Source of the DNA: Anaerolineales bacterium
GTDB lineage: Bacteria; Chloroflexota; Anaerolineae; Anaerolineales; UBA6663
Direction of reading: 5' to 3'
Length of the DNA: 64,000 nucleotides
NCBI GenBank assembly: GCA_020845955.1
Contig: JADLEU010000369.1
Coordinates: 8,462 to 72,461 of the forward strand
The translations under genes and the position numbers were made by a program. Of the stretch, positions 13,064 through 37,686 are shown piece after piece; position 1 is the first letter of the stretch, and every line of letters begins with the position of its first letter. The notes beneath the pieces are model-generated. The model did not search any database and was not told where the DNA came from. It was given only the letters and a program-made list of their open reading frames with translations.

Positions 13064-13076
13064 CGGAAACAGGCCG

Positions 13077-13150
13077 CGCCGCGTGCGGGACGATAGACAG
13101 GCACAGGCTTCATGACGTCGGCAATGGATTGTACCAGACCGCACGCGGCG
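13077..13150 (-). promoter_or_regulatory. Perfect 12-bp inverted repeat (50-nt spacer) at the DGC / glycan-operon junction, enclosing an extended -10-like TGGTACAAT
   Basis: cgccgcgtgcgg (13077-13088) is the exact reverse complement of ccgcacgcggcg (13139-13150). On the minus strand the loop contains tggTACAAT (13128-13136). Confidence 0.3.
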
Positions 13151-19966: not shown

Positions 19967-21310
19967 TCAGCCGGTCACCGCGGCGTCGGTCAACTCGAGC
20001 GCCCGGTTGATGATCTCGAAGGCTCCGCGCAGCTCGGCCTCGGTGATCGACAGAGGCGGGTTGGTGAAGAAGTTGTTCCAGTGGATGAAGACGTAGAGCC
20101 CGTGGTCCTTGAAGAAGGCGGCCAGACGCTGCATTTCAGGGCTGGTGCCGTTGAAGGGCGCCATTGGCTCCTTGGTCGCGCGGTTCTTGACAAGTTCGAT
20201 GATGCCGAACAGGCCGATCGAGCGGACGTCGCCCACGGAGGGATGCTCCGCCTTTAGGTCATCCAGCAGGCCGGCCATCACCCGGCCCTGCCGCTGGGTG
20301 TTGCCCAGGAGATCGTCGTCCTGGATGACCTTGAGGTTGGCGATCGCGGCGGCAAGCGACATGGGGTGAGCGTTGTAGGTCAGCCCGCCGTAGTAGATCT
20401 GATCGTCCCAATAGGCCGCGATCTTGCCGCTCATGGCCACCGCGCCCAGCGGCATGTAAGCGGAGGTCAAGCCCTTGGCCATGGTGATCAAATCGGGAAC
20501 CACGTTCCAGTGATCGACGGCGAACCAGGTGCCGGTACGGCCCAGTCCGCACATGACCTCATCGCAGATCAGCAGAATGCCGTGCCTGTCACAGATCGCG
20601 CGCAGGCCCTGGAGGTAGCCCTCCGGCGGAATGATCAGGCCGTTGGTGCCCGTAACCGTCTCGATGAAAATAGCGGCAATGGTGTACGCGCCCTCGTACT
20701 GGATGACTTCTTCGACCTGGTCGAGACACTTACGGGCAAAGACCTCGTCGCTGTCACCCGCCTGGTAGAGCAGGCTGCGATATTGATAAGGATCAAACAC
20801 CCGCACAATCCCCGGGAGGCCGGGCTCGTTGGCCCAGCGGCGCGGATCGCCGGTGAGGCTGATGGCGCCGGCAGTGGCGCCGTGGTACGAGCGGTAGCGG
20901 GTAATGATCTTCTGGCGGCCAGTATAGCCGCGCGCCAGCTTGATGGCGTTTTCGTTCGCCTCGGCGCCGCCTAACGTAAAGAAGAACTTGTTCAGGTCGC
21001 CGGGCGTGAGCTCGGCCAGCATGCGCCCCAGCTCGGCGCGCACCGGGGTGGCCATACCCGGCCCCGCGTAGACGAGCTCGTCGGCTTGAGCCTTGATCGC
21101 GTCGATCACGCGCTGGTCGCCGTGGCCAATGTTGACGCACATCAACTGCGAGTTCAGGTCGAGATAGCGCTTGCCATGCGCGTCCCAGAAATAGACGCCC
21201 TTGGCCTTAACCATGGGGATGGGGTTAACGGCGGCCTGGGCCGACCAGGAGTAGAAGGTGTGCCGCTTCGACAGCGCCACCATCTCTTCGGCAGACATCA
21301 TCGGTGTCAT
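19967..21310 (-). CDS. Class-III (omega/beta-alanine-type) aminotransferase
   Basis: The ATG at 21310 gives MTPMMSAEEMVALSKRHTFYSWSAQAAVNPIPMVKAKGVYFWD. The body is typical class III (LICDEVMCGLGRTG, PLP-Lys context ITMAKGLTS). The 130-aa upstream extension in the track is Arg/Pro-rich junk. Confidence 0.9.
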   Translation of the reverse strand: MTPMMSAEEMVALSKRHTFYSWSAQAAVNPIPMVKAKGVYFWDAHGKRYLDLNSQLMCVNIGHGDQRVIDAIKAQADELVYAGPGMATPVRAELGRMLAELTPGDLNKFFFTLGGAEANENAIKLARGYTGRQKIITRYRSYHGATAGAISLTGDPRRWANEPGLPGIVRVFDPYQYRSLLYQAGDSDEVFARKCLDQVEEVIQYEGAYTIAAIFIETVTGTNGLIIPPEGYLQGLRAICDRHGILLICDEVMCGLGRTGTWFAVDHWNVVPDLITMAKGLTSAYMPLGAVAMSGKIAAYWDDQIYYGGLTYNAHPMSLAAAIANLKVIQDDDLLGNTQRQGRVMAGLLDDLKAEHPSVGDVRSIGLFGIIELVKNRATKEPMAPFNGTSPEMQRLAAFFKDHGLYVFIHWNNFFTNPPLSITEAELRGAFEIINRALELTDAAVTG

Positions 21311-21357
21311 CGGCGGGCTCCTAAGTAGAGGTAAGCACCGGCCTATTGTACCGCCGG

Positions 21358-22779
21358 CTAGAGCACGGCGCCGTGGGCGGCCCGCTTGAGCCAGCTTCCC
21401 CCGCCCGGCTCGCCGTTCCAGGTGTCGCCGTCGACCAGCAAGTTTCCGCGCAGGTAGACCTGCTCGGGGACGCCGCGGATTTCCCAACCTTCGTACAGGT
21501 TGTAATCGGTGCGCTGGTGCGAGGTGCGGGCGCCCATCACACGCGTCGTATTCGGGTTCCAGATGACGACATCGGCGTCGGCGCCCACGGCCAGGGTGCC
21601 TTTGCGGGGGTAGAGGCCGAAGATCTTGGCCGGGTTCGTGCAGCACAACTCGACCAGGCGGTTGAGGCTGATCCGTCCCTGCCCCACGCCGTAGGTCCAC
21701 AGGATCGGCATACGGTCCTCGATGCCGGGCACGCCGTTGGGGATCTTGTCGAAGCTGTCGCTGCCCAGCTCCTTGCCCGGCATCACAAACGGCTGGCCTT
21801 CGTATTCAATCGGCTTCGTGCCGTCGAACAAAAACGGGCAATGATCAGTGGAGACGGCTTGCAGCGCATTGCTGCGCACGGCCTCCCACAGGGCAGCATG
21901 GTCGGCGGCGGTGCGCATGGGCGGCGAGCACACCCACTTGGACCCGTCGGGCTGGCGCAGGTTGTCGACGGTGAAGAAGAAGTACTGGGTGCAGGTCTCC
22001 CCCATCACAGATAGGCCGCGCGCCCGCCCATAGGTGATCTGGTCCACGGCCATGGCGTTGGTGACGTGGACGACATAGAGTGGGGCGCCAGCCATACCGG
22101 CCAGGGCTACGGCACGCATAGTGGCCTCGGCCTCGGCCCAGGCCGGATGCGTCAGCGCATGCCACTCGGCCGCGCGGTGCCCCTTGGCCAATGCGGCCTT
22201 GATGAGAGTGTCGATGACATCGCCGTTCTCAGCGTGGACCATGGTCAGCATGCCGGCCTCCGCCGCTTTCATCAGGGCTTTGAAGAAGGTGGTGTCGTCC
22301 ACCTGAAGTACGCCCTTGTAGGCCAGGAAGAGCTTGAGCGAGGTGATGCCTTCGCCGGCCAGGGTGGGGATCTCGTCCATGACGGCCGGCGTCAGGTCGG
22401 TTATGGCCAGGTGAAAGCCGTAGTCGATCGCGGCCCTGGCATCTGATTTCTTGTGCCAGTTCTCCATCGCCTGATGCAGCGATTCGCCCTTGCCCTGGAT
22501 GACAAAGTCGATGTGGGTGGTCGTGCCGCCAAAGGCCGCGGCCTTTTGGCCGGAATAGAAGTCGTCGGAGGCAAAGGTCCCGAAGAAAGGCAATTCCATG
22601 TGGGTATGCACATCGATGCCCCCCGGCAATACGTACTTGCCACTGGCATCGACGACGCGGGCGCCCTCCGGTCGCAGCTCGTGGCCGAGCAGCACGATCT
22701 TGTTGTCCTCGATCAGCAAGTCGGCCGGAAAGGTCTCGGCGGCGGTGACAAGGGTGCCATTCTTAATCAGGGTCTTCAT
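21358..22779 (-). CDS. Dihydropyrimidinase / D-hydantoinase (cyclic amidohydrolase)
   Basis: MKTLIKNGTLVT..LPGGIDVHTHMELPF..AAFGGTTTHIDF..SLKLFLAYKG..VHAENGD..PLYVVHV..STDHCPF..IPNGVPGIEDRM match the family end to end. Confidence 0.9.
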   Translation of the reverse strand: MKTLIKNGTLVTAAETFPADLLIEDNKIVLLGHELRPEGARVVDASGKYVLPGGIDVHTHMELPFFGTFASDDFYSGQKAAAFGGTTTHIDFVIQGKGESLHQAMENWHKKSDARAAIDYGFHLAITDLTPAVMDEIPTLAGEGITSLKLFLAYKGVLQVDDTTFFKALMKAAEAGMLTMVHAENGDVIDTLIKAALAKGHRAAEWHALTHPAWAEAEATMRAVALAGMAGAPLYVVHVTNAMAVDQITYGRARGLSVMGETCTQYFFFTVDNLRQPDGSKWVCSPPMRTAADHAALWEAVRSNALQAVSTDHCPFLFDGTKPIEYEGQPFVMPGKELGSDSFDKIPNGVPGIEDRMPILWTYGVGQGRISLNRLVELCCTNPAKIFGLYPRKGTLAVGADADVVIWNPNTTRVMGARTSHQRTDYNLYEGWEIRGVPEQVYLRGNLLVDGDTWNGEPGGGSWLKRAAHGAVL

Positions 22780-22842: not shown

Positions 22843-23760
22843 TCAGGCGGTTGGCCAATTGATCGTGGACTTCAAGAAATGGAGCGCCAGGAACCCGGCC
22901 AGACCGTCGGCGCCGGAGGTGTGCCCAACAGACAGCACGGCGTCGACGGCGGCGGCCAGGTCGGCCTGGCGCTGGGAGCTATCCGGCTGGCATAGGGCCG
23001 AAAACAAGGTGTGCCAAGGGAGGGCGCATTCGCCCTGGCTGGCGGCCCGCACATAGGCAGCGGACAGTGTCGAAGTCAGAGGCGCTACCGCCCGACCAAC
23101 GACCGCCCCCAGGTCGGGCGCGGCCGGGCCATAAAGGCCCGCCCAGGACGCCAGACAGGCGCCCACCACGAAGTCATCGCCTGCTGGCGTCAGCCCGGCG
23201 CCCAGCCCGGCCAGGCACTGTCCGCCGATGGCTGCCTGCTCGAGCTGGCCGGTCAGCAGCCCCGTCGCGAGATCGTCAACACCCGCACGCGCTCGTCCGA
23301 ACAGCCCGGGCGGCAAGGGTGAGCGATCCGCAGCGACCAAGAACAGATCGAGCAGGCTGCCCGGCAAGGCACGGTCCGCGACCAGCCGCACCAGCGCATC
23401 CAGGCGCCCCGGGTCGGCATCCAGGCAGATTCGCAGCTCAGACCAGGATGGGCGCGGATCCCATGTGCGCACACCCTCGCCGGCGTAATCCAGGCGCAAC
23501 GGCCCGACACGCAGAACGGGCGGCGCCCGCACCACCTGGCTTTCGACGGTTACGGCCTTGAACGAGCCGGCGCGATTGGGCGCCACGACCAATCCAAAGG
23601 GCGTCAAACCCCGCGCATTGGTGACCATGGACATTACCTCGCCGGCCGCATCCACCAGATTACAGGCACGGTCGAAGACGTTGAGCACCTGGGCCGGCCT
23701 CGATTGCGCAAGCCATGCGCGGGCGGCGGGTGTCATCGACACCGCGGTCAGGGTGAACAC
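22843..23760 (-). CDS. DUF2877 protein (YlbF/AllH-like)
   Basis: GLGAGLTPAGDDFVVG and VLSVGHTSGADGLAGF resemble the two signature blocks I recall for YlbF-family proteins. The start is GTG 23760 or ATG 23736. Confidence 0.6.
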   Translation of the reverse strand: MFTLTAVSMTPAARAWLAQSRPAQVLNVFDRACNLVDAAGEVMSMVTNARGLTPFGLVVAPNRAGSFKAVTVESQVVRAPPVLRVGPLRLDYAGEGVRTWDPRPSWSELRICLDADPGRLDALVRLVADRALPGSLLDLFLVAADRSPLPPGLFGRARAGVDDLATGLLTGQLEQAAIGGQCLAGLGAGLTPAGDDFVVGACLASWAGLYGPAAPDLGAVVGRAVAPLTSTLSAAYVRAASQGECALPWHTLFSALCQPDSSQRQADLAAAVDAVLSVGHTSGADGLAGFLALHFLKSTINWPTA

Positions 23761-23769
23761 GGCCAGGCC

Positions 23770-24651
23770 TCAGACCAGGGCGCGGGCGATGAACGCAGCC
23801 AGCGAGGTTGGGGAGCGGCCCAGCAGCCAGGTTAACACCTGGGGGCTGCCACCTAGTCCAAAGCGCGCGTAGTAATCGAACATGGCGCGCAGCGTCGCGC
23901 GCTGATAATCGCCCCGGCCAGCCGCGCGGGCGCGGGCCTCCCACTCCTCCATTGGCTCCACCTGAGCGCGCACCGGGCGGCCGAGCTGCGCGCTCAGCCT
24001 TTCCGCGACTTCCGTCTGGGAGAGGGGCAGCGTGCCCACCAGCTCGTAGGTCGCCCCAACGTGGCGAGAATCTTCCAGGTTCAGCACCTGGGCGGCCGCG
24101 GCGGCCACGTCGTCCAAGTCCACGAGGCTAAGGCGGGTTTCGACCGGATAGGGCACGGTATGGACACCGTGCTGAGTGATGGCCTTCCAGTCGGCCAACA
24201 GGTTTTGCATGTAGGGCGCCGGCTGAAGGATCGTGTAGTCCAGACCGGACTCGAAGAGCGCCTGTTCGACCCGCAGCTTGCCCCAATGGTGGGGCATCCG
24301 CTCGGTCTGCGGGTGAAGCACGGAATGGTAGACCATGCGCCTGACGCCGGCTGAGCGCGCAGCCCTAATGACGATCCGGCCGATCGCCAGCTCATCGGGG
24401 TGAACATTCGGGCAGAGGTGATAGACGGCCTGAGCGCCCGTGAGGGCGCGGCGCACGTCGCTCACGTCGCGCAGGTCGCCCGAGATTACGCTCAGAGCAC
24501 CCAGGGCGGTCACCGTGGGCGCGTCTTCAGGACGCCGCACAAAGGCGCGCACGGTCTGCCCCGCGGCCGCCAGAGGCTTGAGAACGGCACGCCCGGTCTT
24601 CCCGGCCGCGCCCATCACGACGATGATTTGGCCACCTCGACTAACTCCCAC
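23770..24651 (-). CDS. NmrA-like / atypical SDR NAD(P)-binding oxidoreductase
   Basis: The N-terminal Rossmann motif is IIVVMGAAGKTGRAV. A GTG start at 24651 is needed to keep beta-1, so the gene overlaps the upstream stop by 37 nt. The alternative ATG at 24615 would delete beta-1. Confidence 0.75.
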   Translation of the reverse strand: MGVSRGGQIIVVMGAAGKTGRAVLKPLAAAGQTVRAFVRRPEDAPTVTALGALSVISGDLRDVSDVRRALTGAQAVYHLCPNVHPDELAIGRIVIRAARSAGVRRMVYHSVLHPQTERMPHHWGKLRVEQALFESGLDYTILQPAPYMQNLLADWKAITQHGVHTVPYPVETRLSLVDLDDVAAAAAQVLNLEDSRHVGATYELVGTLPLSQTEVAERLSAQLGRPVRAQVEPMEEWEARARAAGRGDYQRATLRAMFDYYARFGLGGSPQVLTWLLGRSPTSLAAFIARALV

Positions 24652-26960
24652 AGCCGGCTGGGGCTGAGCGGGATTTCTAGCAGCTCCAGCCCTGGCACGG
24701 CTAGAGCATTCTCCACAGCCTGGGCAAAGAGCGGGCCGACCGGGATCGCCCCAGCCTCGCCGGCTCCCTTGATGCCCAGCGGGTTGAGCGGCGAGAGGGT
24801 GACGGTGTGGCCGGCAATCACACGCGGCACTTCCATGGCCGTGGGCACCAGGTAATCCATAAAGGTGCCCGTGAGCAGCTGGCCATTCTCGTCGAAGACG
24901 AGCTGTTCATAGAAGGCGTTGCCGATGCCCTGGGCGACCCCGCCCTGCACCTGGCCCTCCAGGATCAGGGGGTTGAGGACAGTGCCACAATCGTGAACGA
25001 CAACATATCGCAAAATCTGAACGCCAAAGGTCTCGGGGTCGACCGCCAGGATCATGGCGTGGACGCCGCTGGCAGTGGCGGCGCTGGCCGGTCCAAAGTA
25101 GTTGGTCGCCTCCAGGCCGGGCGTAGTGCCTGGCTTGACGGCGCCGCGCAGCGGGTTGGCCTGGGCAGCCAGATCGCTCAGGGGGACGGCCCGCTGCGGC
25201 ACGCCCTTAACGCGCACCTGGCCGTCGACCAACTCCAGGTCTTCCTCGGCGGCCTCGAAGTGCTCGGCGGCCAGGCGCAAGACCTTATTGCGCACGTCTT
25301 TGGCGGCTTCGTTGACGGCGTTGCCGGCCACCACTGCGCCGCGGCTGGCAAACGTCCCGGCGCCCCAGTAGAACTGGTCGGTGTCACCGGTGACCACTTC
25401 CACATCCCGAACGCTAACGCCCAACTGATCGGCCACGATTTGGGCCAAGCTGGTGAAGTGGCCCTGGCCTTGGGTGCCGATGCCGGTGGCGAGCGAAACC
25501 TTGCCGCTGGCTTGGACCTTGACGCGGGCGCCTTCATAGGGGCCAATGCCGGTGCCTTCGACGTAGGCCACCACGCCAATGCCCACGTGCCGGCCGGCCG
25601 CGCGCAGGCGGGGCTGCTCTTCGGCGACAAAGCGGTCATACTCGATCAGTTCTAGGGCCTTGTCCATGACCGGCTGATAGTTGCCGCTGTCATACACGAG
25701 CGGCGCGAAGTCCTGGTAAATGACCTCGTTGTTATACGGAAAGGCATCGGGCGGGATGAAGTTGCGGCGGCGGATCTCGACCACACTGAGGCCTAGCTGC
25801 GGCGCGACCAGGTCGAGTAGCCGCTCGATCACGAACACCCCGTGCTGGCGGCCCGCGCCCCGGTAGGGCGTAACGATGGTCTTGTTGGTGAAGACAGCCC
25901 GAAACTCCGAGTAGTAGTTAGGGATGTCGTACGGACCGAGCAGTGTGCACTGGCTGTTGAGCGGCACGGTCAACCCATAGGGGTGATAGGCGCCGCCATC
26001 GTGCAGGAAAACGTCGTGAACACCCAGGATGCGACCGTCGGCGGCCAGGGCAATCTCCACGTCGTGGACCTGGTTGCGCTCCTGGGTAGTGGCCACGAAG
26101 TTCTCGGCCCGGTCCTCGATCCACTTGACGGGCCGGTTTAGGCGCAGCGCGGCCCACGGGATGAGGACTTCCTCCTGGTAGAACATCATGATCTTGGGGC
26201 CAAAGCCGCCCCCAATGAAGGGTGCTACGACGCGCACCTGGTTCTCCGAGAGGCCGAGCATACTGGCCAGACCGTTGCGGATCGCGATGGGGGCTTGCGT
26301 CGTGTCCCAGATTGTCAGGCGACCAGCGCGAGCGTCCCATTGGGCGACAATACCGCGGTTCTCCATGGCGGCCGCCGCGCCGTGGTCATACTTCAGGCGG
26401 CGGCGCAAGACGAGGTGGGCCTCGGCGCGGGCGGCCGCGTAGTCACCCTTGCGCTGGATGACGTGCGCGGCCAGGTTGGCCTCCAGGTCGTCGTGGATCC
26501 GGGGCGCATCGGGGTCGAGGGCGTGCTCCAGGTCAACGACCGGCGGCAGCGGCTCGTAGTTGACGGCTACGTCGATGAGCGCATCCTCGGCCAGGTAGCG
26601 GCTCTCGGCAATCACAACCGCCACCGGCTCGCCCACAAAGCGCACTTTGTCGCGCGCCAGGGGCACTTGGGTGCGGCGGTGAAAGACGGCGCCCTCGACC
26701 GGCGGCGGGTTGACCAACAACGGGCCCGGCTTCCAGTAGTCGCCCAGATCGGCGGCGGTGTAGACCGCCACCACGCCGGGCCGGGCGCGCGCAGCCGTGG
26801 CATCGACGCTGCGCAGCCACGCGTGGGCATAGGGGCTGCGCACAAAGGCCGCGTGCAGCATGCCGGGCAGGTCCACGTCGTCGGTGAAGAGCGCCTGACC
26901 GGTCAACAGGCGAGGGTCTTCGTTGCGGGTGATAGGCGCCCCCAGATAGCGCGTTTCCAT
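24615..26960 (-). CDS. Xanthine dehydrogenase-family molybdopterin-binding large subunit (CoxL/aldehyde-oxidase type, substrate unknown)
   Basis: The protein is 781 aa. The N-terminus RNEDPRLLTGQALFTDD is typical. The active-site loop YRGAGR is encoded at 25848-25865 (checked on the DNA). This is not the VAYRCSFR loop of true CO dehydrogenases. Confidence 0.9.
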   Translation of the reverse strand: METRYLGAPITRNEDPRLLTGQALFTDDVDLPGMLHAAFVRSPYAHAWLRSVDATAARARPGVVAVYTAADLGDYWKPGPLLVNPPPVEGAVFHRRTQVPLARDKVRFVGEPVAVVIAESRYLAEDALIDVAVNYEPLPPVVDLEHALDPDAPRIHDDLEANLAAHVIQRKGDYAAARAEAHLVLRRRLKYDHGAAAAMENRGIVAQWDARAGRLTIWDTTQAPIAIRNGLASMLGLSENQVRVVAPFIGGGFGPKIMMFYQEEVLIPWAALRLNRPVKWIEDRAENFVATTQERNQVHDVEIALAADGRILGVHDVFLHDGGAYHPYGLTVPLNSQCTLLGPYDIPNYYSEFRAVFTNKTIVTPYRGAGRQHGVFVIERLLDLVAPQLGLSVVEIRRRNFIPPDAFPYNNEVIYQDFAPLVYDSGNYQPVMDKALELIEYDRFVAEEQPRLRAAGRHVGIGVVAYVEGTGIGPYEGARVKVQASGKVSLATGIGTQGQGHFTSLAQIVADQLGVSVRDVEVVTGDTDQFYWGAGTFASRGAVVAGNAVNEAAKDVRNKVLRLAAEHFEAAEEDLELVDGQVRVKGVPQRAVPLSDLAAQANPLRGAVKPGTTPGLEATNYFGPASAATASGVHAMILAVDPETFGVQILRYVVVHDCGTVLNPLILEGQVQGGVAQGIGNAFYEQLVFDENGQLLTGTFMDYLVPTAMEVPRVIAGHTVTLSPLNPLGIKGAGEAGAIPVGPLFAQAVENALAVPGLELLEIPLSPSRLWELVEVAKSSS

Positions 26961-26962
26961 CC

Positions 26963-27745
26963 TTAGTCCGTCCAGGCCACCGCGCGGCAGAAGGCGGCCT
27001 CACCGCCCTGAAACTTCCAGGGGAAGACGCCCAGCGTTAGGCGGCGGTTATGCAGCTCCGGACGCCCGATGTCGCCGCCCAGGTTCTCGACATGGATGCA
27101 GTCGTGAGGGAAGAGGGCATTGTGAGTCAACTGGTAGGCCGAATCAGGAAAGAGCTCGTCGACTTGGCCGGCGCCGAACTTCGCTTCCACGCGGGCGCGC
27201 ACCTTCTGCCAATGCTCCAGGCCGCCACGCCCGAGGAAACGCCCGATGGGCAGGTTCATGGGATGATCCGTCGAAATCATGTCCACGCCCCAAATGTGAA
27301 TCTTCTTCTGCAGCAGCCAGTCGCAAATGCTGTAGTGCGGGCCCGGATGGCGTTGGATGTAGCGCTCCTCGTCGCCATCGGGGCTGAGGAACGAGTATTT
27401 GTGCCAGCCGGTATGAATGAAGAGTAGGTCGCCGTCGCGGATCTCGGCCCGGTCTTCCAGCATCTGCGGCGTGAATATATCCAGGTCGTCGAGAACGTCG
27501 CTGAGGTCTACGATGACGCCAGGACCGTAGCACCACTCGATGGGGATCTGGTCGATGGTCTTGCCCTTGGTCACGAAGTGGTGCGGGGCGTCCAGGTGCG
27601 TGCCCATGTGGTTCGAGGTCATGATGTATTGGGCATTGACGCCATGCTCCGACTTGCGCTTGATGTACTTAGCCTCGAACGGAGGGTAATAGGGCCAGAA
27701 CGAGCAGTCGGCATTCAAGGGTTGAGAGAGGTCGTAGATTTTCAT
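26963..27745 (-). CDS. Cyclase-family protein (kynurenine formamidase / isatin hydrolase-like metal hydrolase)
   Basis: The HxGTHxDxPxH motif is present as NHMGTHLDAPHHF. The size is ~260 aa. Confidence 0.8.
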   Translation of the reverse strand: MKIYDLSQPLNADCSFWPYYPPFEAKYIKRKSEHGVNAQYIMTSNHMGTHLDAPHHFVTKGKTIDQIPIEWCYGPGVIVDLSDVLDDLDIFTPQMLEDRAEIRDGDLLFIHTGWHKYSFLSPDGDEERYIQRHPGPHYSICDWLLQKKIHIWGVDMISTDHPMNLPIGRFLGRGGLEHWQKVRARVEAKFGAGQVDELFPDSAYQLTHNALFPHDCIHVENLGGDIGRPELHNRRLTLGVFPWKFQGGEAAFCRAVAWTD

Positions 27746-27926
27746 AGGTCTCCTCTAGTAGTCGCTGTTGCGCGGGGATGAAAAGCGCAAGTGGCCGAGG
27801 TCAGCAGTTGAGAACCAGGGCGCCCTTCGAATTCAGGAACAGCTTCGGGCATGCCGAGGAGCGGTCCGGCGCCGGCGAAGTAGGGCGGCACAGGCTCCTG
27901 TGTCGGCGCCATCGGCCGTCCACCCG

Positions 27927-29171
27927 CTACAACCCATACTGGCCGGCGAACGCGACCAGCGCTTCCTCAAAGATCGCCATGGGCGGGCGTACCAAGCCGG
28001 CGCCGATCTGTCCCACCCCGGCCTGCTTGTGCGCGATGCCGGTGTTGACGCGTGGGGTGATCCCTGTTTCCACGACCTTGCGAATATCGATGCCGACCGG
28101 CGTGCCGCGGAAGTCCAGGGCCGGGATAGTGAAGTGTTTGTGCTCAGCTACGGTGATCTCATACATCTCCAGCGTGGCGTTGACGGCATGTTTGGGCGTA
28201 CTGCCGACAAAGGTGACGATGGCCGGAGCAGCGGCCATGGCGAATCCGCCGATGCCGGCGGTCTCGGTGATAGTGCTGTCACCGATGTCGGGGTTAGCGT
28301 CGGCGGCCGTAAAGCCAGGGAACCAGAGGCCTTGGGGCGTCTCGCACGGCGCCGCAAACCAGCGATCGCCCAGGCCGCTGACGCGCAGCCCAAAGTCCGT
28401 GCCGTTGCGGGCCATGACGCTCACGACGGTGCTGCCCTCGACATTGTGGGCCGCGTCGGCCATCGCTTTGCAGCCCGCCATGACCGGGTTGAGCACGCTG
28501 AGGGCGTTGTCACCCAGGAACTTGAGCACTTCGGCGGCCACGGCGCTGTCGCCGGACGCGCGCGCGACCAGCGGGGCCAGCCACTTTAGAAACAGCAGCG
28601 ATCCGGCCTTGTTGCGGTTGTGACCCTCGTCGCCCATGTGCAGTGCTTCGGACAGCAGGGCCCGCACGTCCAAGCCGTCGGGACTACTGGTTATGGCTTC
28701 GGCCAGCACCGGCCCCATAACGGTGTTCATCCAGCGCAGGCGATTGAGCACGTCGGCGCTGAAGGCGCCGTAGCGCAGCACCTTGCCATAACCCTCGTTA
28801 AGGTTGGAGTAGGCACGATTGCCATGAGTGATGTTTTCGACGATGTAGACCAGCATGGAGGCCGAGGTGACGCCGGCCATCGGCCCAACCGTGGCGTGCT
28901 CGTGACAGGGCGCGAAGTCCACCTCACCGCGCTCGACCATGGCCACTGCGGCTGGCTCGTCCGGCGCCAGGCCCTCGTAGATCAGCGCGCCGATCACGGC
29001 CCCGCGCAAGGGACCCGACATGCGCGCCCACTCGATCGGCGGCCCAGCGTGCAGCAGCAGATTGGGTCGCATACCGGGGACGACATCACGGGCCGGCGCC
29101 AGGCCTTTGAGAATTGGCCGGGCGGACATCATCTTCTCGACGGCAGTCTGGTTGGCAGCAGCGATGTCCAC
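27927..29171 (-). CDS. DUF1116 protein (YlbE/AllG-like)
   Basis: The protein is collinear with E. coli YlbE as I recall it. Shared blocks include LLHAGPP, GEVDFAPCHEH..VGPMAGVTSASM, VENITHGNRAYSNLNEGYGKVLRYGA, GDSTITETAGIGGFAMAAAP and VETGITPRVNTGIAHKQAGVGQIGAG. The start is GTG, with AGGAG 6 nt upstream. Confidence 0.85.
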   Translation of the reverse strand: MDIAAANQTAVEKMMSARPILKGLAPARDVVPGMRPNLLLHAGPPIEWARMSGPLRGAVIGALIYEGLAPDEPAAVAMVERGEVDFAPCHEHATVGPMAGVTSASMLVYIVENITHGNRAYSNLNEGYGKVLRYGAFSADVLNRLRWMNTVMGPVLAEAITSSPDGLDVRALLSEALHMGDEGHNRNKAGSLLFLKWLAPLVARASGDSAVAAEVLKFLGDNALSVLNPVMAGCKAMADAAHNVEGSTVVSVMARNGTDFGLRVSGLGDRWFAAPCETPQGLWFPGFTAADANPDIGDSTITETAGIGGFAMAAAPAIVTFVGSTPKHAVNATLEMYEITVAEHKHFTIPALDFRGTPVGIDIRKVVETGITPRVNTGIAHKQAGVGQIGAGLVRPPMAIFEEALVAFAGQYGL

Positions 29172-29222
29172 AGGCGGCTCCTAGATCATGCAAGACGGAC
29201 GCGGATAGGCGACCATGACCGG

Positions 29223-30923
29223 TTACGACTTCAACCTCGCTAGGAGCGCCATCAAGCGCTCGTTGCCGCCTGCCGGCGGACGCCAGTCGACGTGCACGGC
29301 GCTGGCGCCCTGGCTGACGAGGCTGGCGTAGAAAGACTCCAGCCCAAGATTGATGGCAGCGAAGGGTTCGGGCGCCAGGCGGTCCAGCGCCACCGGCGGC
29401 TGGGGCGGGGCCGGACGCTGGCCAAGGCGACGACTGACGATCTCAACCGCTTCGGCGGTCGTGCGGCAGACCATAGCTCCAGCCTGCGCGAAGCGCTCGA
29501 CCTGGCTGTCCAGACCCTGCGGGTCGGCGTCGGTGCCAACGACGAGGGCCAGGAACTCCAGGTCACGGCGGTGCTGCCGGGCGGCCGAAATGGCCGGCGC
29601 TAACTCGGCCGCCGGGTCGGGATGAGCGCCCTCCCCCAGCACGACGTCCAGCCAGATCAACCCCACCTGCGGGTCACCCGCTTCCTGGCCCAGCCGGCGC
29701 AGGCGCAGATCATTGTCGAGCATGGGATGCAGCCGGCCTACGGTGAAGATGTCCTCACCCAGGTCCAGGACAGTGTGCGCCTGACTGCGCAGCGGGTCGG
29801 GCAGGCGCTGCGCGTCAGTGATCGGGACATTGGAGTACAGCGGCGCCAGGATGGCCTGAAGCCCCAGCACAGCCTCATAAGCGAGGGTGCCGCCAGAAAA
29901 GAGGGCGCGCAGATAACGGCCGGAAGGGGATTGAAAGCCAGATGCCTGCGGTATTTCGATCGTTGCCGAAGCGCCGGCGTCAGCCGGCAGCAAGCCAACT
30001 GCCAGCTCAGCGGCTTCTGCCAGCGTGCTGGCAAAGCGGATCGCCCCGAGCCGCCGGGCGGGCGGTGGATAGCCGAGGAAGTCGACGACTACGGGCTTCC
30101 CAACCGTCTGAGCCGCGGCCAAGAGGCGAGTAACCACCTCGGGCGCGGGTGGTTTGGAAATGAGCACGACGACGCGCGTACCGGGGTCGCGGGCCAGGAC
30201 GTCGAGCGCCTGATGGGCCGTGATCGCTCCGACCTCGGCCTTCAGATCGCGCCCGCCGGTGCCAAGCGCGTGCGAGACACCCGAGCCCAGGGCATGAATG
30301 CGGCTGGTAACGGCCTGGAGGCCGGTGCCAGAGGCGCCCACCAGACCAATAGGACCGCGCCGTACGCGGTTGGCAAACCCGAGCCCAACGCCACCGACTA
30401 TGGCTGTGCCGCAATCGGGACCCATCACCAGCAGCCCCTTATCTCGAGCAGCCTGCTTGAGCGCCACCTCGTCCTCCAACGGGACGTTGTCGCTGTAAAG
30501 GAAGACGTGCCGGTCCAGGTCCAAAGCCTGGCGGGCGACGCTGGCGGCGAAACGGCCGGGCACCGAGACCAGCACCCAGGCGGCTTCGGGCAACTGGCGC
30601 ACGGCAGTCTCGAGGCTCTTAGGCCGGAACGCCTCGGCGGCGACCGACCGGCGGCGCGCCAACAGGGCGTCTACCTGCCCAAGCGCAGCCAGGGCCGCGG
30701 CCTCAGTCTCGGCGCGCACAACCAGCAGCAGGTCATTGGGGCCAGCTCTCGGCGTACCCGCCAGCAAGTCGCTCTGGTCAAGCAGCTCGCAGTTGGCCGG
30801 CGTAGCCATCACCACGCCCGCATCGGCCACGCCCGGCAGTTCCAGCAACGCGCGCTGAAGCCGCATGAGCACGGCCGAGTCGTAGTACGCGCCCGAGCGA
30901 ACTTCACTGCGAACGACGGTCAT
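29223..30923 (-). CDS. fdrA: FdrA (AllF-like; succinyl-CoA-ligase-alpha-like fold protein)
   Basis: The protein is collinear with E. coli FdrA as I recall it. Shared blocks include YYDSAVLM, SDNVPLEDEVALKQAARDKGLLVMGPDCGT, GLVGASGTGLQ, ISKPPAPEV and the C-terminal INLGLESFY..WRPPAGGNERLMALLARL. The start is the ATG at 30923; the track start at 30929 is TTG. Confidence 0.9.
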   Translation of the reverse strand: MTVVRSEVRSGAYYDSAVLMRLQRALLELPGVADAGVVMATPANCELLDQSDLLAGTPRAGPNDLLLVVRAETEAAALAALGQVDALLARRRSVAAEAFRPKSLETAVRQLPEAAWVLVSVPGRFAASVARQALDLDRHVFLYSDNVPLEDEVALKQAARDKGLLVMGPDCGTAIVGGVGLGFANRVRRGPIGLVGASGTGLQAVTSRIHALGSGVSHALGTGGRDLKAEVGAITAHQALDVLARDPGTRVVVLISKPPAPEVVTRLLAAAQTVGKPVVVDFLGYPPPARRLGAIRFASTLAEAAELAVGLLPADAGASATIEIPQASGFQSPSGRYLRALFSGGTLAYEAVLGLQAILAPLYSNVPITDAQRLPDPLRSQAHTVLDLGEDIFTVGRLHPMLDNDLRLRRLGQEAGDPQVGLIWLDVVLGEGAHPDPAAELAPAISAARQHRRDLEFLALVVGTDADPQGLDSQVERFAQAGAMVCRTTAEAVEIVSRRLGQRPAPPQPPVALDRLAPEPFAAINLGLESFYASLVSQGASAVHVDWRPPAGGNERLMALLARLKS

Positions 30924-31054
30924 CCCCAATTGTCCTGGCCAGCCCCAAACTTATCCATAAGGCAGGCATAAAACCTCTCAAGCACCTTCTGGCCAATGGG
31001 GCGCTTGCGGACTGGCCCTGCCGCTGAGGCGCGGGCCGCCAAGCTGCGCAGCCC

Positions 31055-32347
31055 CTAGTGGCGCAGCACCCCCAACGCGCCAGCCAACTGCGGCGCCGCC
31101 CAGCCCAGAAGCGATTCGTCCGCCTGCCAGCGCCCGATCACCTGTAGGCCGAGTGGCAGTCCATTGCCCGCCTGGCCGGCCGGAAGGCTGACGGCGGGCA
31201 ACCCGCTGTGGGTCCAGGGCAGATTCATCACGGGGTCGCCGGTGCTGTCCAGGCCGCGCGGCGCGGGACCAGGGGCAGCGGGCGCCAGCCAGACGTCTAG
31301 CTCATGCGCGTCCATCAGAGCCAGCAGCTCAGCCCGCAGGGCGGCGCGGCCGGACAGGGCCTCCGCCAGGGCTTCGGGCGCCACGGCCTGCCCTCGCTCG
31401 ATCAGCTCAACCGTTTTGGAGTGATACAAGTCCCGGTAGCGGCGGAACCAGGCAGCATGCACCCCAGCGGCCTCGGCCGCCACGATCAGGTTGTGCCGCG
31501 CCCGGATCGCTTCGAAGTCCGGCATAGCTGGCACGAGGCGCACGTCGTATCCGGCACCCGCCAGGCGTTGCACAGCCAGCCGCAGATGGGCCTGGGCCTC
31601 GGCACTGGCCTGGGCCAGGTAAGGTCCCTCGGGGATGCCCACCACGGGCCTCCCGGTGGGCGAAACCGCCAGCCACTCCTGGCAGAGCAGTTCAGCCGCC
31701 AACGCGACCCCAGGTAGATCTAACGCGAAGACGCCTACATGGTCGAGCGAAGGCGACAACGGGATAACGCCGTCGGCCGCAATCCGGCCGTAGGTCGGCT
31801 TGTAACCGACCACGCCGCAATAGGCAGCCGGGCGAATGATCGACCCAATGGTTTGCGTGCCAAGCGCCAATGGACACAGGCCGGCCGCCACGGCAGCCGC
31901 GGAGCCGCTGCTAGAGCCGCCCGGCGTATGTTCGGGCTGGCAGGGATTGCGTGTGGGGCCCGGCGCAAAATAGGCGAACTCGGTGGAGATGGTTTTTCCC
32001 AGCACCAAGGCGCCGGCAGCCTTCAACCGGGCAACCGCGGCGCTCTCGGGCCCCCGCAGCACTTCGGGAGGCAGCCGGCTGCCACCGCGCGTCGGCAGGC
32101 CGGCGGCATGAAAGATGTCCTTTACGCCCAGCAGAACGCCGTAGAGTGGTGGGCGGGCGGACGGGTTCGGGTAAGCAGTCTCGAGCTCCGCCGCCTCGCG
32201 CCGCAGCCGTTCAAAACGGTCCTCTTCGGGAACAAACGCCTGCACAGCCGGCTCGACCTCAGCAAAACGGCGCTCAAGATCGGCGTAGTAATCGCCAAGC
32301 GACAATTGGCCCATGCGCAAGGCCGCGGCCAATTCAGTCAAGTTCAC
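31055..32347 (-). CDS. Amidase-signature (AS) family amidase
   Basis: GVKDIF (catalytic Lys context) and the GGSSSGSAAAVAAG signature are present. The GTG start overlaps the upstream gene by 14 nt. Confidence 0.85.
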   Translation of the reverse strand: MNLTELAAALRMGQLSLGDYYADLERRFAEVEPAVQAFVPEEDRFERLRREAAELETAYPNPSARPPLYGVLLGVKDIFHAAGLPTRGGSRLPPEVLRGPESAAVARLKAAGALVLGKTISTEFAYFAPGPTRNPCQPEHTPGGSSSGSAAAVAAGLCPLALGTQTIGSIIRPAAYCGVVGYKPTYGRIAADGVIPLSPSLDHVGVFALDLPGVALAAELLCQEWLAVSPTGRPVVGIPEGPYLAQASAEAQAHLRLAVQRLAGAGYDVRLVPAMPDFEAIRARHNLIVAAEAAGVHAAWFRRYRDLYHSKTVELIERGQAVAPEALAEALSGRAALRAELLALMDAHELDVWLAPAAPGPAPRGLDSTGDPVMNLPWTHSGLPAVSLPAGQAGNGLPLGLQVIGRWQADESLLGWAAPQLAGALGVLRH

Positions 32348-32837
32348 GGCTGGCAGCTCCGAGGTTACCCCTTTGGGCGGCTAGAAGCACCGCATCGACA
32401 ATATGCTGGTAGCCCGTGCAGCGGCAAAGATTGCCTGAGATTGCCTCGCGCACTTCGGGTTCGGTCGGGTTCGGGTTTTCGGCCAGGAAGGGCACCAGCG
32501 TCATCAGGAAACCGGGGGTGCAAAAGCCGCACTGCAGGCCATGGGCGTCGCGGAAGGCCTGCTGGAGGGGATGCAGCTGGTTTGGGTCGGCTGCCAACCC
32601 CTCGACCGTCAGGAGCGCATGGCCGTTGGCCTGCACCGCGAGCATCAGGCAGGAGCGGACCGGCTGGCCGTCGAACATGACGGTGCAGGCACCACAGACG
32701 CCATGCTCGCAGCCCACGTGCGTGCCGCTGAGACCCAGTTCGTGCCGCAAGAAGTCGCTGAGGAGTAGGCGCGCCTCCACCTCGCGCGCGTAGACTTGGC
32801 CGTTAATGGTGACCGAAATGGCGTGACGGGCATTCAT
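32334..32837 (-). CDS. (2Fe-2S)-binding small subunit of a molybdenum hydroxylase (CoxS-like)
   Basis: Both cluster motifs are present: GCEHGVCGACTV and CGFCTPGF..NLCRCTGY. The junction with the upstream gene is an ATGA overlap. Confidence 0.9.
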   Translation of the reverse strand: MNARHAISVTINGQVYAREVEARLLLSDFLRHELGLSGTHVGCEHGVCGACTVMFDGQPVRSCLMLAVQANGHALLTVEGLAADPNQLHPLQQAFRDAHGLQCGFCTPGFLMTLVPFLAENPNPTEPEVREAISGNLCRCTGYQHIVDAVLLAAQRGNLGAASRELD

Positions 32838-33733
32838 GCTGGGCTCGCAGGGTCGGAGCCACCCCGAGCACGCTCGACAGCCATGGCCAGCGCGCGGCGG
32901 GTGAGCACGCGGGCCAGGTGGCGCTGATAGGCCGGCGTGGCGTGCACATTGCCGGTTGGCGCAATCTCATGCTCGGCAGCGTGGTTGGCCGCGGCCAAGA
33001 AGGCCGCGGGCGTCGGGGGCCGGCCGCGCAGCAACTCGGCCGCCTGGCGCGCGTCCAGCGGGCCGTCGCCGGCGTTCAAGTAGACGAGGCGGGCCTGCAG
33101 GCAGCCGCCGCGCTCGTCCAGGCTGACGACCGCGGCCACACCCAGTATGGCGTAGTCCCCGCGACGCCGCGCAAATTCTAGAAAGGATGTGCCGGTGCGA
33201 GGTGGAAGGGCAGGCAGGGCGATTTCGACCAACATCTCTTCCGGGGTCAGCACTGTGGTGAATAGGCCCTGAAAGAAGTCGGCCGCAGGGATCCAGCGCT
33301 CGCCATGGGCCGACTGCACCCGTAAACGCGCATCGAGCGCCAGCACGATCACGGGCAGTTCCGCGGCCGGATCAGCATGGGCCAGGCTGCCCCCCAGGGT
33401 GCCCCGGCTGCGGATCTGCGGATGAGCGACGCAAGGCATGGCTTCGAAGAGCAGCGGCGCATGCCGCGCGACCAGGGGGTCACGCTCCAACCGCCGCTGG
33501 CGTACCATGGCGCCCAGCCGCAGACCGCCGGCGGGGTCGGGCCAGACGAAATCGAGCTCGGCCAGCGGGTTGACATCAACCAGCAACGCCGCCTGGACCA
33601 GGCGGAAGTTCATGGCCGGCACTAGGCTTTGGCCGCCAGCCAGGAACTTGGCCTCGTCGCCGTGCTCGGCCTTGAGGGCCAACGCGGCCTCCAGCGAATC
33701 CGGGGCAGCGTAGTCGAAGGGCGCCGGTTTCAT
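32834..33733 (-). CDS. FAD-binding medium subunit of a molybdenum hydroxylase (CoxM-like)
   Basis: MKPAPFDY..FLAGGQSLVPAMNFRL and the CO_deh_flav_C-like C-terminus match the family. Confidence 0.9.
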   Translation of the reverse strand: MKPAPFDYAAPDSLEAALALKAEHGDEAKFLAGGQSLVPAMNFRLVQAALLVDVNPLAELDFVWPDPAGGLRLGAMVRQRRLERDPLVARHAPLLFEAMPCVAHPQIRSRGTLGGSLAHADPAAELPVIVLALDARLRVQSAHGERWIPAADFFQGLFTTVLTPEEMLVEIALPALPPRTGTSFLEFARRRGDYAILGVAAVVSLDERGGCLQARLVYLNAGDGPLDARQAAELLRGRPPTPAAFLAAANHAAEHEIAPTGNVHATPAYQRHLARVLTRRALAMAVERARGGSDPASPA

Positions 33734-33739
33734 CGCGGG

Positions 33740-34609
33740 TCAGGCCGCCGGGTTCGTGAGGTCGCCGTACATCTCCGGCCGGCGGTCGCGGTAGAATTGC
33801 CAGGTGTTGCGTACCTGGCGCACCTGGTCGAGATCCAGGTCGCAGACGATCAACTGCTCTTCGCAGTCGCTGGCCTTCGGCGCCCCGGTTGTGAGATCGG
33901 GCAGGTACTGGCCGCGCGGGTCGGTGAAGTATGAGCTGCCATAGTAGTCGTTCGGCCCTAGGTCAGGCTCCCGTCCCACGCGGTTGATGGTGCCGACAAA
34001 GACGCCGTTGAAGATGGCGTGCGCGCGCTGCTCGATGTCCCACAAGTGCATCGATAGCCCGCGTGAGGTGGCCGAAGGGATGAAGATCAGTTCGGCGCCG
34101 TGCAGGCCCAGCAGCCGCGGCCCTTCGGGGAAGTGACGGTCGTAGCAAATATAGACGCCGACGCGACCGGCGGCAGTATCAAAGACCGGGTAGCCCAGGT
34201 TGCCGGGCTTGAAATAAAACTTCTCCCAGAAGCCGGTCACCTGGGGGATATGGGTCTTGCGATACTTGCCCAGGTAGGTGCCGTCGGCGTCGATCACGGC
34301 GGCCGTGTTGAAGTAGACGCCGGTCTGCTCCTCTTCGTACATGGGCACAATCAGCACCAGTTTGTGCCGGCGGGCCAGGTCCTGCATTAGGCGCGTGGTC
34401 GGGCCGTTAGGGATCGCCTCGGTGTAGTTGTAGAACTGCGGATCCTGTACCTGGCAAAAATAAGGGCCGTAGAAGAGCTCCTGAAAACACATCACCTGTG
34501 CCCCCTGGTCGGCAGCCTGCTCGACATAGGCGACGTGCTTGTCAATCATCGACTGCTTGTCGCCAGTCCAGGTGGCCTGCAACAGAGCACCGCGGATCAG
34601 ACGTGACAT
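33740..34609 (-). CDS. Beta-ureidopropionase-type nitrilase-superfamily carbamoyl-amidohydrolase
   Basis: The ATG at 34609 has GAGGGAG upstream. The E-K-C triad contexts are CFQELF, GKYRKTHIP and VYICYDRHFPE. NGPTTRLMQDLARRHKLVLIVPMYEEE closely parallels eukaryotic-type beta-alanine synthase. The 130-aa upstream extension in the track is rejected. Confidence 0.85.
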   Translation of the reverse strand: MSRLIRGALLQATWTGDKQSMIDKHVAYVEQAADQGAQVMCFQELFYGPYFCQVQDPQFYNYTEAIPNGPTTRLMQDLARRHKLVLIVPMYEEEQTGVYFNTAAVIDADGTYLGKYRKTHIPQVTGFWEKFYFKPGNLGYPVFDTAAGRVGVYICYDRHFPEGPRLLGLHGAELIFIPSATSRGLSMHLWDIEQRAHAIFNGVFVGTINRVGREPDLGPNDYYGSSYFTDPRGQYLPDLTTGAPKASDCEEQLIVCDLDLDQVRQVRNTWQFYRDRRPEMYGDLTNPAA

Positions 34610-34630
34610 CGGATCTCCCTCGCTGTGGTT

Positions 34631-35864: not shown

Positions 35865-35979
35865 GCAGGTCTCCTCCAATGCCAATTGAGTGGAACGATC
35901 GATGGAACAGCCGGCAAGGCGATCGAGGTCAGGCGGCCTCCTTTCTGGCCGGGCATCGCCGGCCGGGTCGCGACGCTGC

Positions 35980-36810: not shown

Positions 36811-36833
36811 GGTGTCAATGGCAGGCAGCCGGC

Positions 36834-37658: not shown

Positions 37659-37686
37659 GGCTATACGCCTCCGATCGCGAGTCTAG

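Follow-up and report, generated by a model that had tools for sequence, protein, structure and literature searches.

A stretch of 64,000 nt from contig JADLEU010000369.1, the whole of which is hereafter called the window, derives from a metagenome-assembled genome (MAG) of the Anaerolineales (Chloroflexota) and has a G+C content of ~67 %; the AllG and AllH proteins it encodes match proteins of an Anaerolineales MAG at 100 % identity. It harbours a cluster in which genes for homologues of the Escherichia coli proteins AllF, AllG and AllH are interleaved with those for a three-subunit molybdenum (Mo) hydroxylase of the CoxL/CoxM/CoxS type. We propose, with a probability of about 55 %, that the region from ~19.9 to 39 kb is one catabolic operon for the oxidative breakdown of uracil/thymine-type pyrimidines via barbiturate. 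Related genomes, in some of which the cluster includes a barbiturase, suggest that it represents an undescribed, probably ATP-yielding route for uracil-type pyrimidines. Ureidomalonate is put forward as the substrate of the AllFGH-like enzyme because it is oxalurate extended by one CH2, and is the sole acyl-ureide of the barbiturate route.

It was not until 2024 that AllFGH was recognised as an enzyme, and a single substrate is known for it; the barbiturate route of pyrimidine degradation is 70 years old and genetically incomplete. In E. coli, AllFGH converts oxalurate and phosphate to carbamoyl phosphate and oxamate, after which AllK makes ATP (PMC11326118). The only other described context for these genes is in Nitrospira MAGs, where allFGHK lies beside triuret/biuret genes (PMC12625717). 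The classical oxidative route leads from uracil to barbiturate, then through barbiturase to ureidomalonate, which ureidomalonase cleaves to urea and malonate (PMC3758960, PMC4051656).

Organisation of the gene cluster

Read along the minus strand from 33733 to 22843, the order of genes is CoxM–CoxS–amidase–AllF–AllG–cyclase–CoxL–NmrA–AllH, with each gene assigned by Pfam/NCBIfam scores above the curated cutoffs:

32834..33733, minus strand: Mo-hydroxylase flavin adenine dinucleotide (FAD) subunit, CoxM type (PF00941 + PF03450)
32334..32837, minus strand: Mo-hydroxylase [2Fe-2S] small subunit, CoxS type (PF01799 + PF00111)
31055..32347, minus strand: amidase-signature amidase (PF01425, 229 bits)
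29223..30923, minus strand: AllF/FdrA-type subunit (NF004760, 508 bits, cutoff 433; open reading frame (ORF) to 30929, ATG at 30923)
27927..29171, minus strand: AllG/DUF1116-type subunit, 414 amino acids (aa) (PF06545, 302 bits)
26963..27745, minus strand: cyclase-family metal-dependent hydrolase (PF04199, 128 bits)
24615..26960, minus strand: Mo-hydroxylase large subunit, CoxL type (PF01315 + PF02738 + PF20256)
23770..24651, minus strand: NmrA-like NAD(P)-binding protein (PF05368, 102 bits)
22843..23760, minus strand: AllH/DUF2877-type subunit, 305 aa (PF11392, 70 bits, cutoff 25)

All genes of the cluster share one strand, with intergenic distances of −37 to +181 bp; the CoxS gene shares 4 nt with that of CoxM and 14 nt with that of the amidase, and tight or overlapping spacing is seen at the CoxS/amidase, cyclase/CoxL and CoxL/NmrA junctions. 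An initial annotation of this DNA, made from the letters alone, had described AllF, AllG and AllH as split by CoxL, the cyclase and the NmrA-like gene, and family scores bear this out at the coordinates above. The same is true of the adjacency of fdrA and the DUF1116 gene, with the DUF2877 gene ~4.2 kb away behind three others, whilst domain matches confirm that CoxM and CoxS lie upstream of the amidase and fdrA, and CoxL downstream of the DUF1116 gene. By comparison, fdrA, ylbE, ylbF and the carbamate kinase gene ybcF are indeed contiguous in the E. coli K-12 genome, as that annotation had stated. A scan for promoters and terminators over 19–38.9 kb returned counts at or below shuffle expectation and nothing usable. 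Searches against Rfam revealed no riboswitch, including the NMT1/xanthine motif, either in the window at the gathering threshold or in 19–42.5 kb at E ≤ 1.

The AllF/AllG/AllH triad

All three defining subunits of the AllFGH/YahEFG family (FdrA, DUF1116 and DUF2877) are present in the window. AllG displays 51 % identity to E. coli AllG and 50 % to YahG, and AllF 40 % to both E. coli AllF (over its full length) and YahF. AllF carries PF00549 and PF02629, which are succinyl-coenzyme A (CoA)-synthetase-alpha-like domains, and the homologue of AllG in the PDB (3clq) is uncharacterised. The weakest member is AllH, with 31 % identity to E. coli AllH/YlbF (full-length; BLASTP E-value 3 × 10−10); together with a PF11392 score above cutoff, this match establishes 22843–23760 as a true DUF2877/YlbF homologue, the point on which the initial annotation had staked its reading. 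Overall identities to E. coli YahE/YahF/YahG are 29/40/50 %. Sequence comparison as a means of telling AllFGH-like from YahEFG-like substrates was dropped, as the triad is equidistant from both.

Judged by its sequences, the triad belongs to the AllFGH/YahEFG family, and filing it as an oxamate carbamoyltransferase is inadvisable. The strict context of that enzyme (EC 2.1.3.5) is not found here, with AllH split off, no carbamate kinase within 10 kb and no all genes nearby. Some 680 sequence clusters of the AllFGH family are without assigned function, as is E. coli YahEFG.

With regard to the subunits themselves, the last ~50 residues of AllF correspond to the first ~50 of E. coli YahG, a segment that has thus moved between subunits. 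Natural AllF–AllG fusions of ~1000 aa exist elsewhere (e.g. P0250, P0252, P0253, P0255 and P0259), and together these two features argue for a tight association of AllF with AllG. AllH changes at roughly double the rate of its partner subunits. Its AlphaFold model (predicted local distance difference test score, pLDDT, 95) displays an N-terminal beta domain and a C-terminal all-alpha domain, for which Foldseek returned no fold relative in the PDB (best E-value 0.49). Two motifs are invariant in this subunit, G-x-G-x-G-L-T-P-A-G-D-D and G-H-T-S-G-x-D.

Conservation amongst the Anaerolineae

Scanning one genome per species for AllG yielded 491 relatives, the best 80 of which (71–85 % identity) were used for the counts given here. 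These 80 are all Chloroflexota MAGs of the Anaerolineae in a broad sense, spanning Anaerolineales, Ardenticatenaceae, Caldilineaceae, Thermoflexus, Promineifilaceae and Aggregatilineales; window proteins were mapped onto each locus, and AllH was sought by profile. As the 80 species are related, the counts do not represent independent events.

The interleaved arrangement, with CoxM–CoxS upstream of AllF–AllG and CoxL downstream, is found in 42 of the 46 loci that contain both CoxS and CoxL. It is therefore not unique to this genome, uniqueness being an outcome that would have undermined the initial annotation, and its recurrence in so many related loci means that it is not due to chance. CoxM–CoxS–CoxL are contiguous in four Anaerolineae loci (L026, L036, L064 and L078). 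Of the 66 loci with enough sequence, 59 have AllF immediately upstream of AllG, and the amidase is present in 53 of 63. AllH lies downstream in 22 of the 35 loci whose sequence extends 9 kb or more in that direction, and never adjoins AllG. Median identities to the window proteins are 84 % for the cyclase, 75 % for AllG, 73 % for CoxL, 62 % for AllF, 57 % for the amidase and 35 % for AllH. The core remains intact across the Anaerolineae loci, with flanks that vary widely.

To characterise these flanks, all ORFs of the 80 loci were clustered and the recurrent families annotated. An NCS2 permease, for which the best model is uracil permease, occurs in 19 loci, and a Bmp-type nucleoside ATP-binding cassette (ABC) transporter also recurs; a cytosine-deaminase-like amidohydrolase lies between CoxL and AllH in seven. 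Malonyl-CoA synthase (NF005702, 565 bits, cutoff 558) directly follows AllH in 8–9 loci, and four contain the carboxyltransferase and membrane beta subunits of a Na+-translocating (methyl)malonyl-CoA-type decarboxylase. A family-III CoA-transferase is present in ten. Genes for maturation of the Mo enzyme are also recurrent, with XdhC in 22 and CoxG in 31 of the 80 loci, as well as CoxD/CoxE. Taken with an amidase resembling malonamidase E2 (see below), these neighbours point to a pyrimidine entering the pathway and a malonyl compound leaving it.

Two further variations within the core concern its gaps. The space between AllG and the cyclase gene measures 181 bp in the window (27746–27926); 21–22 related loci (e.g. 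L008 and L085) carry an inserted gene at this position, encoding a four-helix-bundle protein (TIGR02436/PF05635, '23S rRNA intervening sequence protein'). In the closest relatives, CoxG (PF06240) is situated between the amidase and AllF (L001, 7828–8292; L003, L007 and L016), where the window has a 131-bp gap (30924–31054) and no CoxG.

Related clusters with barbiturase

An exhaustive search of representatives at 50 % identity was used to find outgroups, and from one of these representatives a set of 80 metagenome loci was reached. The closest AllG proteins beyond the Anaerolineae clade reach no more than 54 % identity, and many are AllF–AllG fusions; in the 80 metagenome loci, mostly of 70–75 % G+C, AllG is 47–58 % identical to that of the window. 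CoxM–CoxS–CoxL lie beside AllF–AllG in 24 of these 80, and in 15 of the 28 that extend to at least 12 kb. In a comparison of genomic contexts, as the initial annotation had suggested, AllF/AllG and CoxLMS are associated both in Anaerolineae and in unrelated high-GC lineages.

The best-resolved outgroup type (L092, L095, L096 and L168–L170) belongs, by source names, to Nitriliruptoraceae (Actinomycetota). Its order is a PucR regulator, then AtzD-family barbiturase–NCS2 permease–carbamate kinase–(asparaginase)–AllH–AllF–AllG–NmrA–CoxM–CoxS–CoxL–CoxG–amidase. The AtzD-family protein scores 512 bits and ~70 % full-length identity against PDB 5hwe, 'Barbiturase', the solved enzyme of Rhodococcus, compared with ~290 bits against cyanuric acid hydrolases, and has the SNG of barbiturase where cyanuric acid hydrolases have SRG; on these sequence criteria it is a barbiturase. 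Homologues of it are found in eight outgroup AllG loci, whereas tblastn returned no match to AtzD/TrzD barbiturase (PF09663) in the window or the 80 Anaerolineae loci. The NmrA-like gene travels with AllHFG in other lineages, and not with the Mo enzyme.

A slot between AllG and CoxM is occupied by barbiturase in L160/L161, and by a PhzF-like gene plus a cyclase-family gene in L157/L158/L164. These clusters are closely related (AllG 82–85 %, CoxL 78–79 % identity), and the variation resembles a non-orthologous exchange in which one ring-opening enzyme has taken the place of another. In the isolate Egicoccus sp. AB-alg2 (L167) the locus reads barbiturase–permease–CoxMSL–CoxG–amidase, and it lacks carbamate kinase, AllHFG and NmrA. 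It follows that the Mo enzyme can apparently dispense with AllFGH, and, since the three classical enzymes stand there by themselves, that carbamate kinase, AllHFG and NmrA behave as an add-on module.

Outside the Anaerolineae both enzymes are encoded as intact blocks (AllH–AllF–AllG and CoxM–CoxS–CoxL), and are not interleaved. These blocks, the four contiguous Anaerolineae loci and the Egicoccus locus indicate that interleaving is a lineage-specific rearrangement and not a requirement. The initial annotation had read it as a sign that the two enzymes serve the same pathway and perhaps assemble together. A shared pathway is upheld by the conserved core in 80 Anaerolineae and by the adjacency of CoxMSL in the outgroups, but joint assembly is not, given the intact blocks elsewhere; the interleaved order is a rearrangement of two modules in one pathway, and not evidence of a joint complex.

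Two features of the outgroup modules were observed in addition. An asparaginase-family gene lies inside the carbamate kinase–AllH–AllF–AllG module in L113 (6516–7520) and L169 (12123–13106), and is a candidate malonamate hydrolase in view of the likeness of malonamate to the asparagine side chain. The Nitriliruptoria NmrA-like gene follows AllG with a stop/start overlap (L169, 15496–17841; L170, 16379–18618; L095, 9830–12348). In one assembly the pair is called as a single protein of 781 aa. An apparent AllG–NmrA fusion (P0298) was rejected, as the two are in different frames in L095 and are separate genes in L170; it is read as adjacency plus a possible assembly frameshift in L169.

The Mo hydroxylase, cyclase, amidase and NmrA-like protein

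The three-subunit architecture of the xanthine-oxidase family is complete, comprising Mo-pterin, FAD and 2 × [2Fe-2S] subunits. CoxL scores 909 bits against NF040766, below the cutoff of 950, and its motif PYRGAGR resembles the AYRGAGR of form II. Form I carbon monoxide (CO) dehydrogenase is excluded by the loop TPYRGAGRQ, which lacks the Cu-binding Cys of the expected VAYRCSFR, and by a TIGR02416 score of 580 bits against a cutoff of 991. The best PDB matches are 8uem CoxL and 1t3q quinoline 2-oxidoreductase, with a nicotine-pathway dehydrogenase also amongst the closest solved structures, and identity to the CoxL of barbiturase-linked clusters is 46–52 %. By sequence family, the Mo enzyme is thus of the CoxL form-II/quinoline-oxidoreductase type and is not a CO dehydrogenase; CoxL is proposed as the catalytic subunit of a uracil/thymine dehydrogenase.

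The cyclase is the most conserved protein of the cluster. Its metal-binding motif, HxGTHxDxPxH, is intact (HMGTHLDAPHH, residues 46–56), and kynurenine formamidase and isatin hydrolase are distant relatives in the PDB. We propose it as the ring-opening enzyme, analogous to barbiturase.

For the amidase, all NCBIfam models score below cutoff. Its best solved relative is malonamidase E2 (1ock; E-value 4 × 10−51, full-length), the Lys62/cis-Ser131/Ser155 triad of which has retained equivalents. Both malonamidase E2 and ureidomalonase cut a malonyl-amide bond, so the 1ock match does not discriminate between them, and the protein is proposed as a malonamidase and/or a ureidomalonase. Arg158 of malonamidase E2 was considered as a marker of specificity and rejected, as the GGS-I-R-P motif is general amongst amidase-signature enzymes. 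The best PDB matches of the NmrA-like protein are 5f5l and YtfG/QOR2.

Proposed pathway

The observations comprise gene content, family membership, conserved synteny, the clustering with barbiturase and carbamate kinase in other lineages, and the cyclase/barbiturase exchange within one slot; in the route proposed here, every substrate and product is inferred. The ABC transporter would import the substrate, and the CoxL/M/S Mo hydroxylase would hydroxylate ring C6, converting uracil to barbiturate. Barbiturate would then be opened by the cyclase-family metallo-hydrolase to ureidomalonate (3-oxo-3-ureidopropanoate), a task performed by barbiturase elsewhere. With phosphate, the AllF/AllG/AllH enzyme would convert ureidomalonate to carbamoyl phosphate and malonamate, a one-carbon-longer analogue of the E. 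coli reaction in which oxalurate and phosphate give carbamoyl phosphate and oxamate. The malonamidase-E2-like amidase would hydrolyse malonamate to malonate and NH3, and a carbamate kinase encoded elsewhere would turn carbamoyl phosphate into ATP, CO2 and NH3. In clusters with a gene for malonyl-CoA synthase, its product would activate the malonate.

A stronger form of the proposal, to which we would give slightly less than even odds, is that the triad is a ureidomalonate-specific, phosphate-dependent 'malonamate carbamoyltransferase' that renders the pathway urease-independent and ATP-yielding, that the cyclase is a second, unrelated barbiturase, that CoxLMS represents the unassigned genes for uracil/thymine dehydrogenase, and that this system is widespread in uncultured Anaerolineae and Nitriliruptoria. 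Amongst the candidate substrates listed in the initial annotation, ureidomalonate is favoured by context, but oxalurate is not, there being no allantoin-pathway genes and a CoxL that is not of the xanthine dehydrogenase type.

Flanking genes and the remainder of the window

The genes that border the cluster are as follows:

39001–41103, minus strand: tungsten-type aldehyde:ferredoxin oxidoreductase (AFOR), directly upstream of the ABC transporter
34698..38979, minus strand: ABC transporter with NMT1/THI5-type binding protein (PF09084, PF00528, PF00005), comprising
34698–35885, minus strand: substrate-binding protein
35980–36810, minus strand: permease
36834–37658, minus strand: ATPase
37687–38979, minus strand: permease
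33740..34612, minus strand: CN hydrolase, N-carbamoyl-amine amidase type (PF00795, 205 bits; start near 34610, ORF to 34999)
21358..22779, minus strand: dihydropyrimidinase/D-hydantoinase (TIGR02033, 563 bits, cutoff 393)
19967..21340, minus strand: class-III (omega/beta-alanine-type) aminotransferase (PF00202, 297 bits; NF004718, 547 bits, cutoff 472)

The NMT1/THI5-type transporter is probably the uptake system of the cluster, and a transporter of this type replaces the NCS2 permease beside barbiturase and AllHFG in L113 and L094. The CN hydrolase, for which the best NCBIfam model is N-carbamoylputrescine amidase (254 bits, below cutoff), occurs in seven related loci, and the dihydropyrimidinase gene comes after AllH in L003, L004, L008 and L016. 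Both, along with the aminotransferase, are accessory genes of the sub-clade to which the window belongs. Together with AFOR they would be consistent with a reductive-type branch that joins the route at malonate semialdehyde/malonate; there is no dihydropyrimidine dehydrogenase to accompany them. AFOR is shared at this position only with L048, and its participation in the oxidation of malonate semialdehyde from the aminotransferase branch is speculative.

Further away lies a separate nucleobase-type module (55872–63956, minus strand), consisting of:

63045–63956, minus strand: adenine deaminase, cut by the window end
61994–62974, minus strand: ornithine transcarbamylase (OTCase)-family carbamoyltransferase, below every equivalog cutoff
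61047..61982, minus strand: carbamate kinase (TIGR00746, 376 bits, cutoff 358)
55872–60939, minus strand: Bmp/PnrA-type ABC transporter

This module resembles purine modules of the ygeW/yqeA type. Its carbamate kinase, with 52 % identity to E. coli YahI and 39 % to AllK, is the sole enzyme of the window capable of making ATP from carbamoyl phosphate, and may be the kinase that serves the AllFGH-like enzyme.

Immediately downstream of the cluster, 13153–18444 (minus strand) encodes a protein of 1763 aa with eight GAF domains and a C-terminal GGDEF diguanylate cyclase domain. The region 569–13144 (minus strand) harbours GT2/GT4 glycosyltransferases, a methyltransferase and a Wzt-type ABC exporter (O-antigen-like export), and is syntenic with L086.

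Alternative explanations

Several observations weigh against the barbiturate pathway proposed above. The case is one of comparative genomics. The uracil specificity of the Mo enzyme is predicted from gene context, namely the barbiturase, uracil-type permeases, cytosine-deaminase-like gene and malonyl-CoA synthase of the neighbourhoods; AllF and AllG are equally distant from AllFG (40/51 %) and YahFG (40/50 %), so that sequence by itself is silent on substrate. The amidase could equally be a ureidomalonase that converts malonyl-urea to malonate and urea, completing the classical route without AllFGH. For 13 of 35 loci, a search of 10 kb revealed no AllH, though E. coli needs all three genes. 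None of the 80 Anaerolineae loci has a carbamate kinase within 10 kb of AllG; that of the window is ~30 kb from the cluster and paired with its own OTCase-family gene. The dihydropyrimidinase, N-carbamoyl-amine amidase and aminotransferase of the sub-clade hint at a reductive-type branch or at another cyclic amide, and the proposed steps assign no part to the NmrA-like protein or AFOR.

The ambiguity of the amidase underlies one alternative, in which the Mo enzyme, the ring-opener and a ureidomalonase complete the classical pathway, and AllFGH works in parallel on part of the ureidomalonate or on another ureide, such as a thymine-derived one or an N-carbamoyl compound from the hydantoinase branch, chiefly as a urease-free means of recovering nitrogen. 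The Egicoccus locus, with its three classical enzymes and no AllHFG or carbamate kinase, accords with this, as does the compatibility of the 1ock match with either activity, and the asparaginase in the AllHFG modules of L169 and L113 could be a malonamidase belonging to the module itself. We nevertheless regard such a division as rather unlikely, because the amidase is co-conserved with the neighbouring AllF (53 of 63 Anaerolineae loci), which fits serial enzymes better than redundant ones, and because no urease or urea carboxylase gene was seen in the neighbourhoods examined. The triad might instead be a true oxamate carbamoyltransferase, with a purine- or hydantoin-type compound degraded via oxalurate and the amidase converting oxamate to oxalate. 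E. coli AllFGH is the sole characterised member of the family (PMC11326118), the AllG of the window is 51 % identical to E. coli AllG, and the family-III CoA-transferase of ten loci has some similarity to oxalate/formyl-CoA transferases. However, the triad is as near to YahEFG as to AllFGH, no locus contains allantoinase, allantoate amidohydrolase, ureidoglycine hydrolase or ureidoglycolate dehydrogenase, and CoxL is of the CoxL/quinoline-oxidoreductase and not the xanthine dehydrogenase type (909 versus 404 bits). With barbiturase, malonyl-CoA synthase and the malonamidase-like amidase all pointing to C3 malonyl chemistry, an oxamate route appears decidedly improbable.

Marginally more doubtful still is the degradation of a different N-heterocycle (a pyridine, quinoline or hydantoin derivative), in which the AllFGH-like proteins would form an ADP-forming enzyme resembling acyl-CoA synthetases, as older FdrA annotations imply. 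The succinyl-CoA-synthetase-alpha-like domains of FdrA, the proximity of CoxL to quinoline 2-oxidoreductase and the nicotine-pathway dehydrogenase, and the D-hydantoinase of the sub-clade could all be accommodated by it. Set against these are the established activity of E. coli AllFGH as a carbamoyltransferase (PMC11326118), the carbamate kinase directly beside AllH–AllF–AllG in Nitriliruptoria, and the recurrence of barbiturase, uracil-type permeases and malonyl-CoA enzymes in the neighbourhoods. Finally, interleaving could serve the co-translational assembly of the Mo hydroxylase and the AllFGH-like enzyme into a physical super-complex, given that this order is kept in 42 of 46 Anaerolineae loci and that the CoxS/amidase, cyclase/CoxL and CoxL/NmrA junctions are tight or overlapping. 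This is very improbable: other lineages have separate intact blocks, four Anaerolineae loci are not interleaved, the L167 locus has the Mo enzyme without AllHFG, AllH is often more than 10 kb away, and the fusions seen join AllF to AllG only and never involve a Cox subunit.

Significance and comparison with known systems

The cluster and its relatives provide the AllFGH family with a testable candidate for a second substrate, ureidomalonate, link this family to oxidative pyrimidine degradation, and offer candidate genes for the Mo dehydrogenase of that route. They also suggest the non-homologous replacement of barbiturase by a cyclase-fold hydrolase, and illustrate that interleaved subunit genes need not imply a joint complex. 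If the barbiturate pathway is correct, the abundant fermentative Chloroflexota of soil, sediment and sludge could, in the absence of urease, obtain one ATP plus both ring nitrogens from each pyrimidine; the same gain, ATP and ureido nitrogen without urease, was argued by Kim & Kim for urease-negative enterobacteria. The findings are therefore of interest for research on nucleobase catabolism and on the AllFGH family. A literature search yielded neither published genes for the Mo enzyme of the classical route nor any paper that connects FdrA/DUF1116/DUF2877 with barbiturate, with uracil dehydrogenase or with Mo hydroxylases, although most subscription journals lay outside the search and absence is thus unproven.

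In comparison with E. coli AllFGH, the window shares the three families, at 40/51/31 % identity for F/G/H, and the proposed chemistry is the same, namely phosphorolysis of an N-acyl-urea to carbamoyl phosphate and an amide. The genes of the window are, however, non-contiguous, with AllH 4.2 kb away and no adjacent carbamate kinase, and they reside in a Mo-hydroxylase/amidase/cyclase operon rather than an allantoin regulon, with ureidomalonate as the predicted substrate. The same three families make up E. coli YahE–YahF–YahG, which together with YahI forms an uncharacterised triad plus kinase-like protein; the yahEFG order, H–F–G, matches that of the Nitriliruptoria clusters, whilst no Mo hydroxylase lies beside yahEFG in E. 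coli.

The amidase of the window displays moderate similarity to malonamidase E2 of Bradyrhizobium japonicum, and could have ureidomalonate as its substrate instead. With form-II CoxL hydroxylases and quinoline 2-oxidoreductase (8uem and 1t3q), the Mo enzyme has the L/M/S architecture and domain set in common, but its context predicts a pyrimidine substrate. The nearest counterpart to the proposed route as a whole is the oxidative pyrimidine pathway of Rhodococcus erythropolis (Soong et al. 2001/2002, as cited in PMC3758960 and PMC4051656), with which it would share the intermediates barbiturate, ureidomalonate and malonate; the cluster encodes an amidase of the amidase-signature family and a Mo enzyme of three subunits. 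The window differs in having no AtzD-family barbiturase, with the cyclase in its slot, and in a host from an anaerobe-type Chloroflexota lineage; with AllFGH added, the predicted product is carbamoyl phosphate instead of urea.

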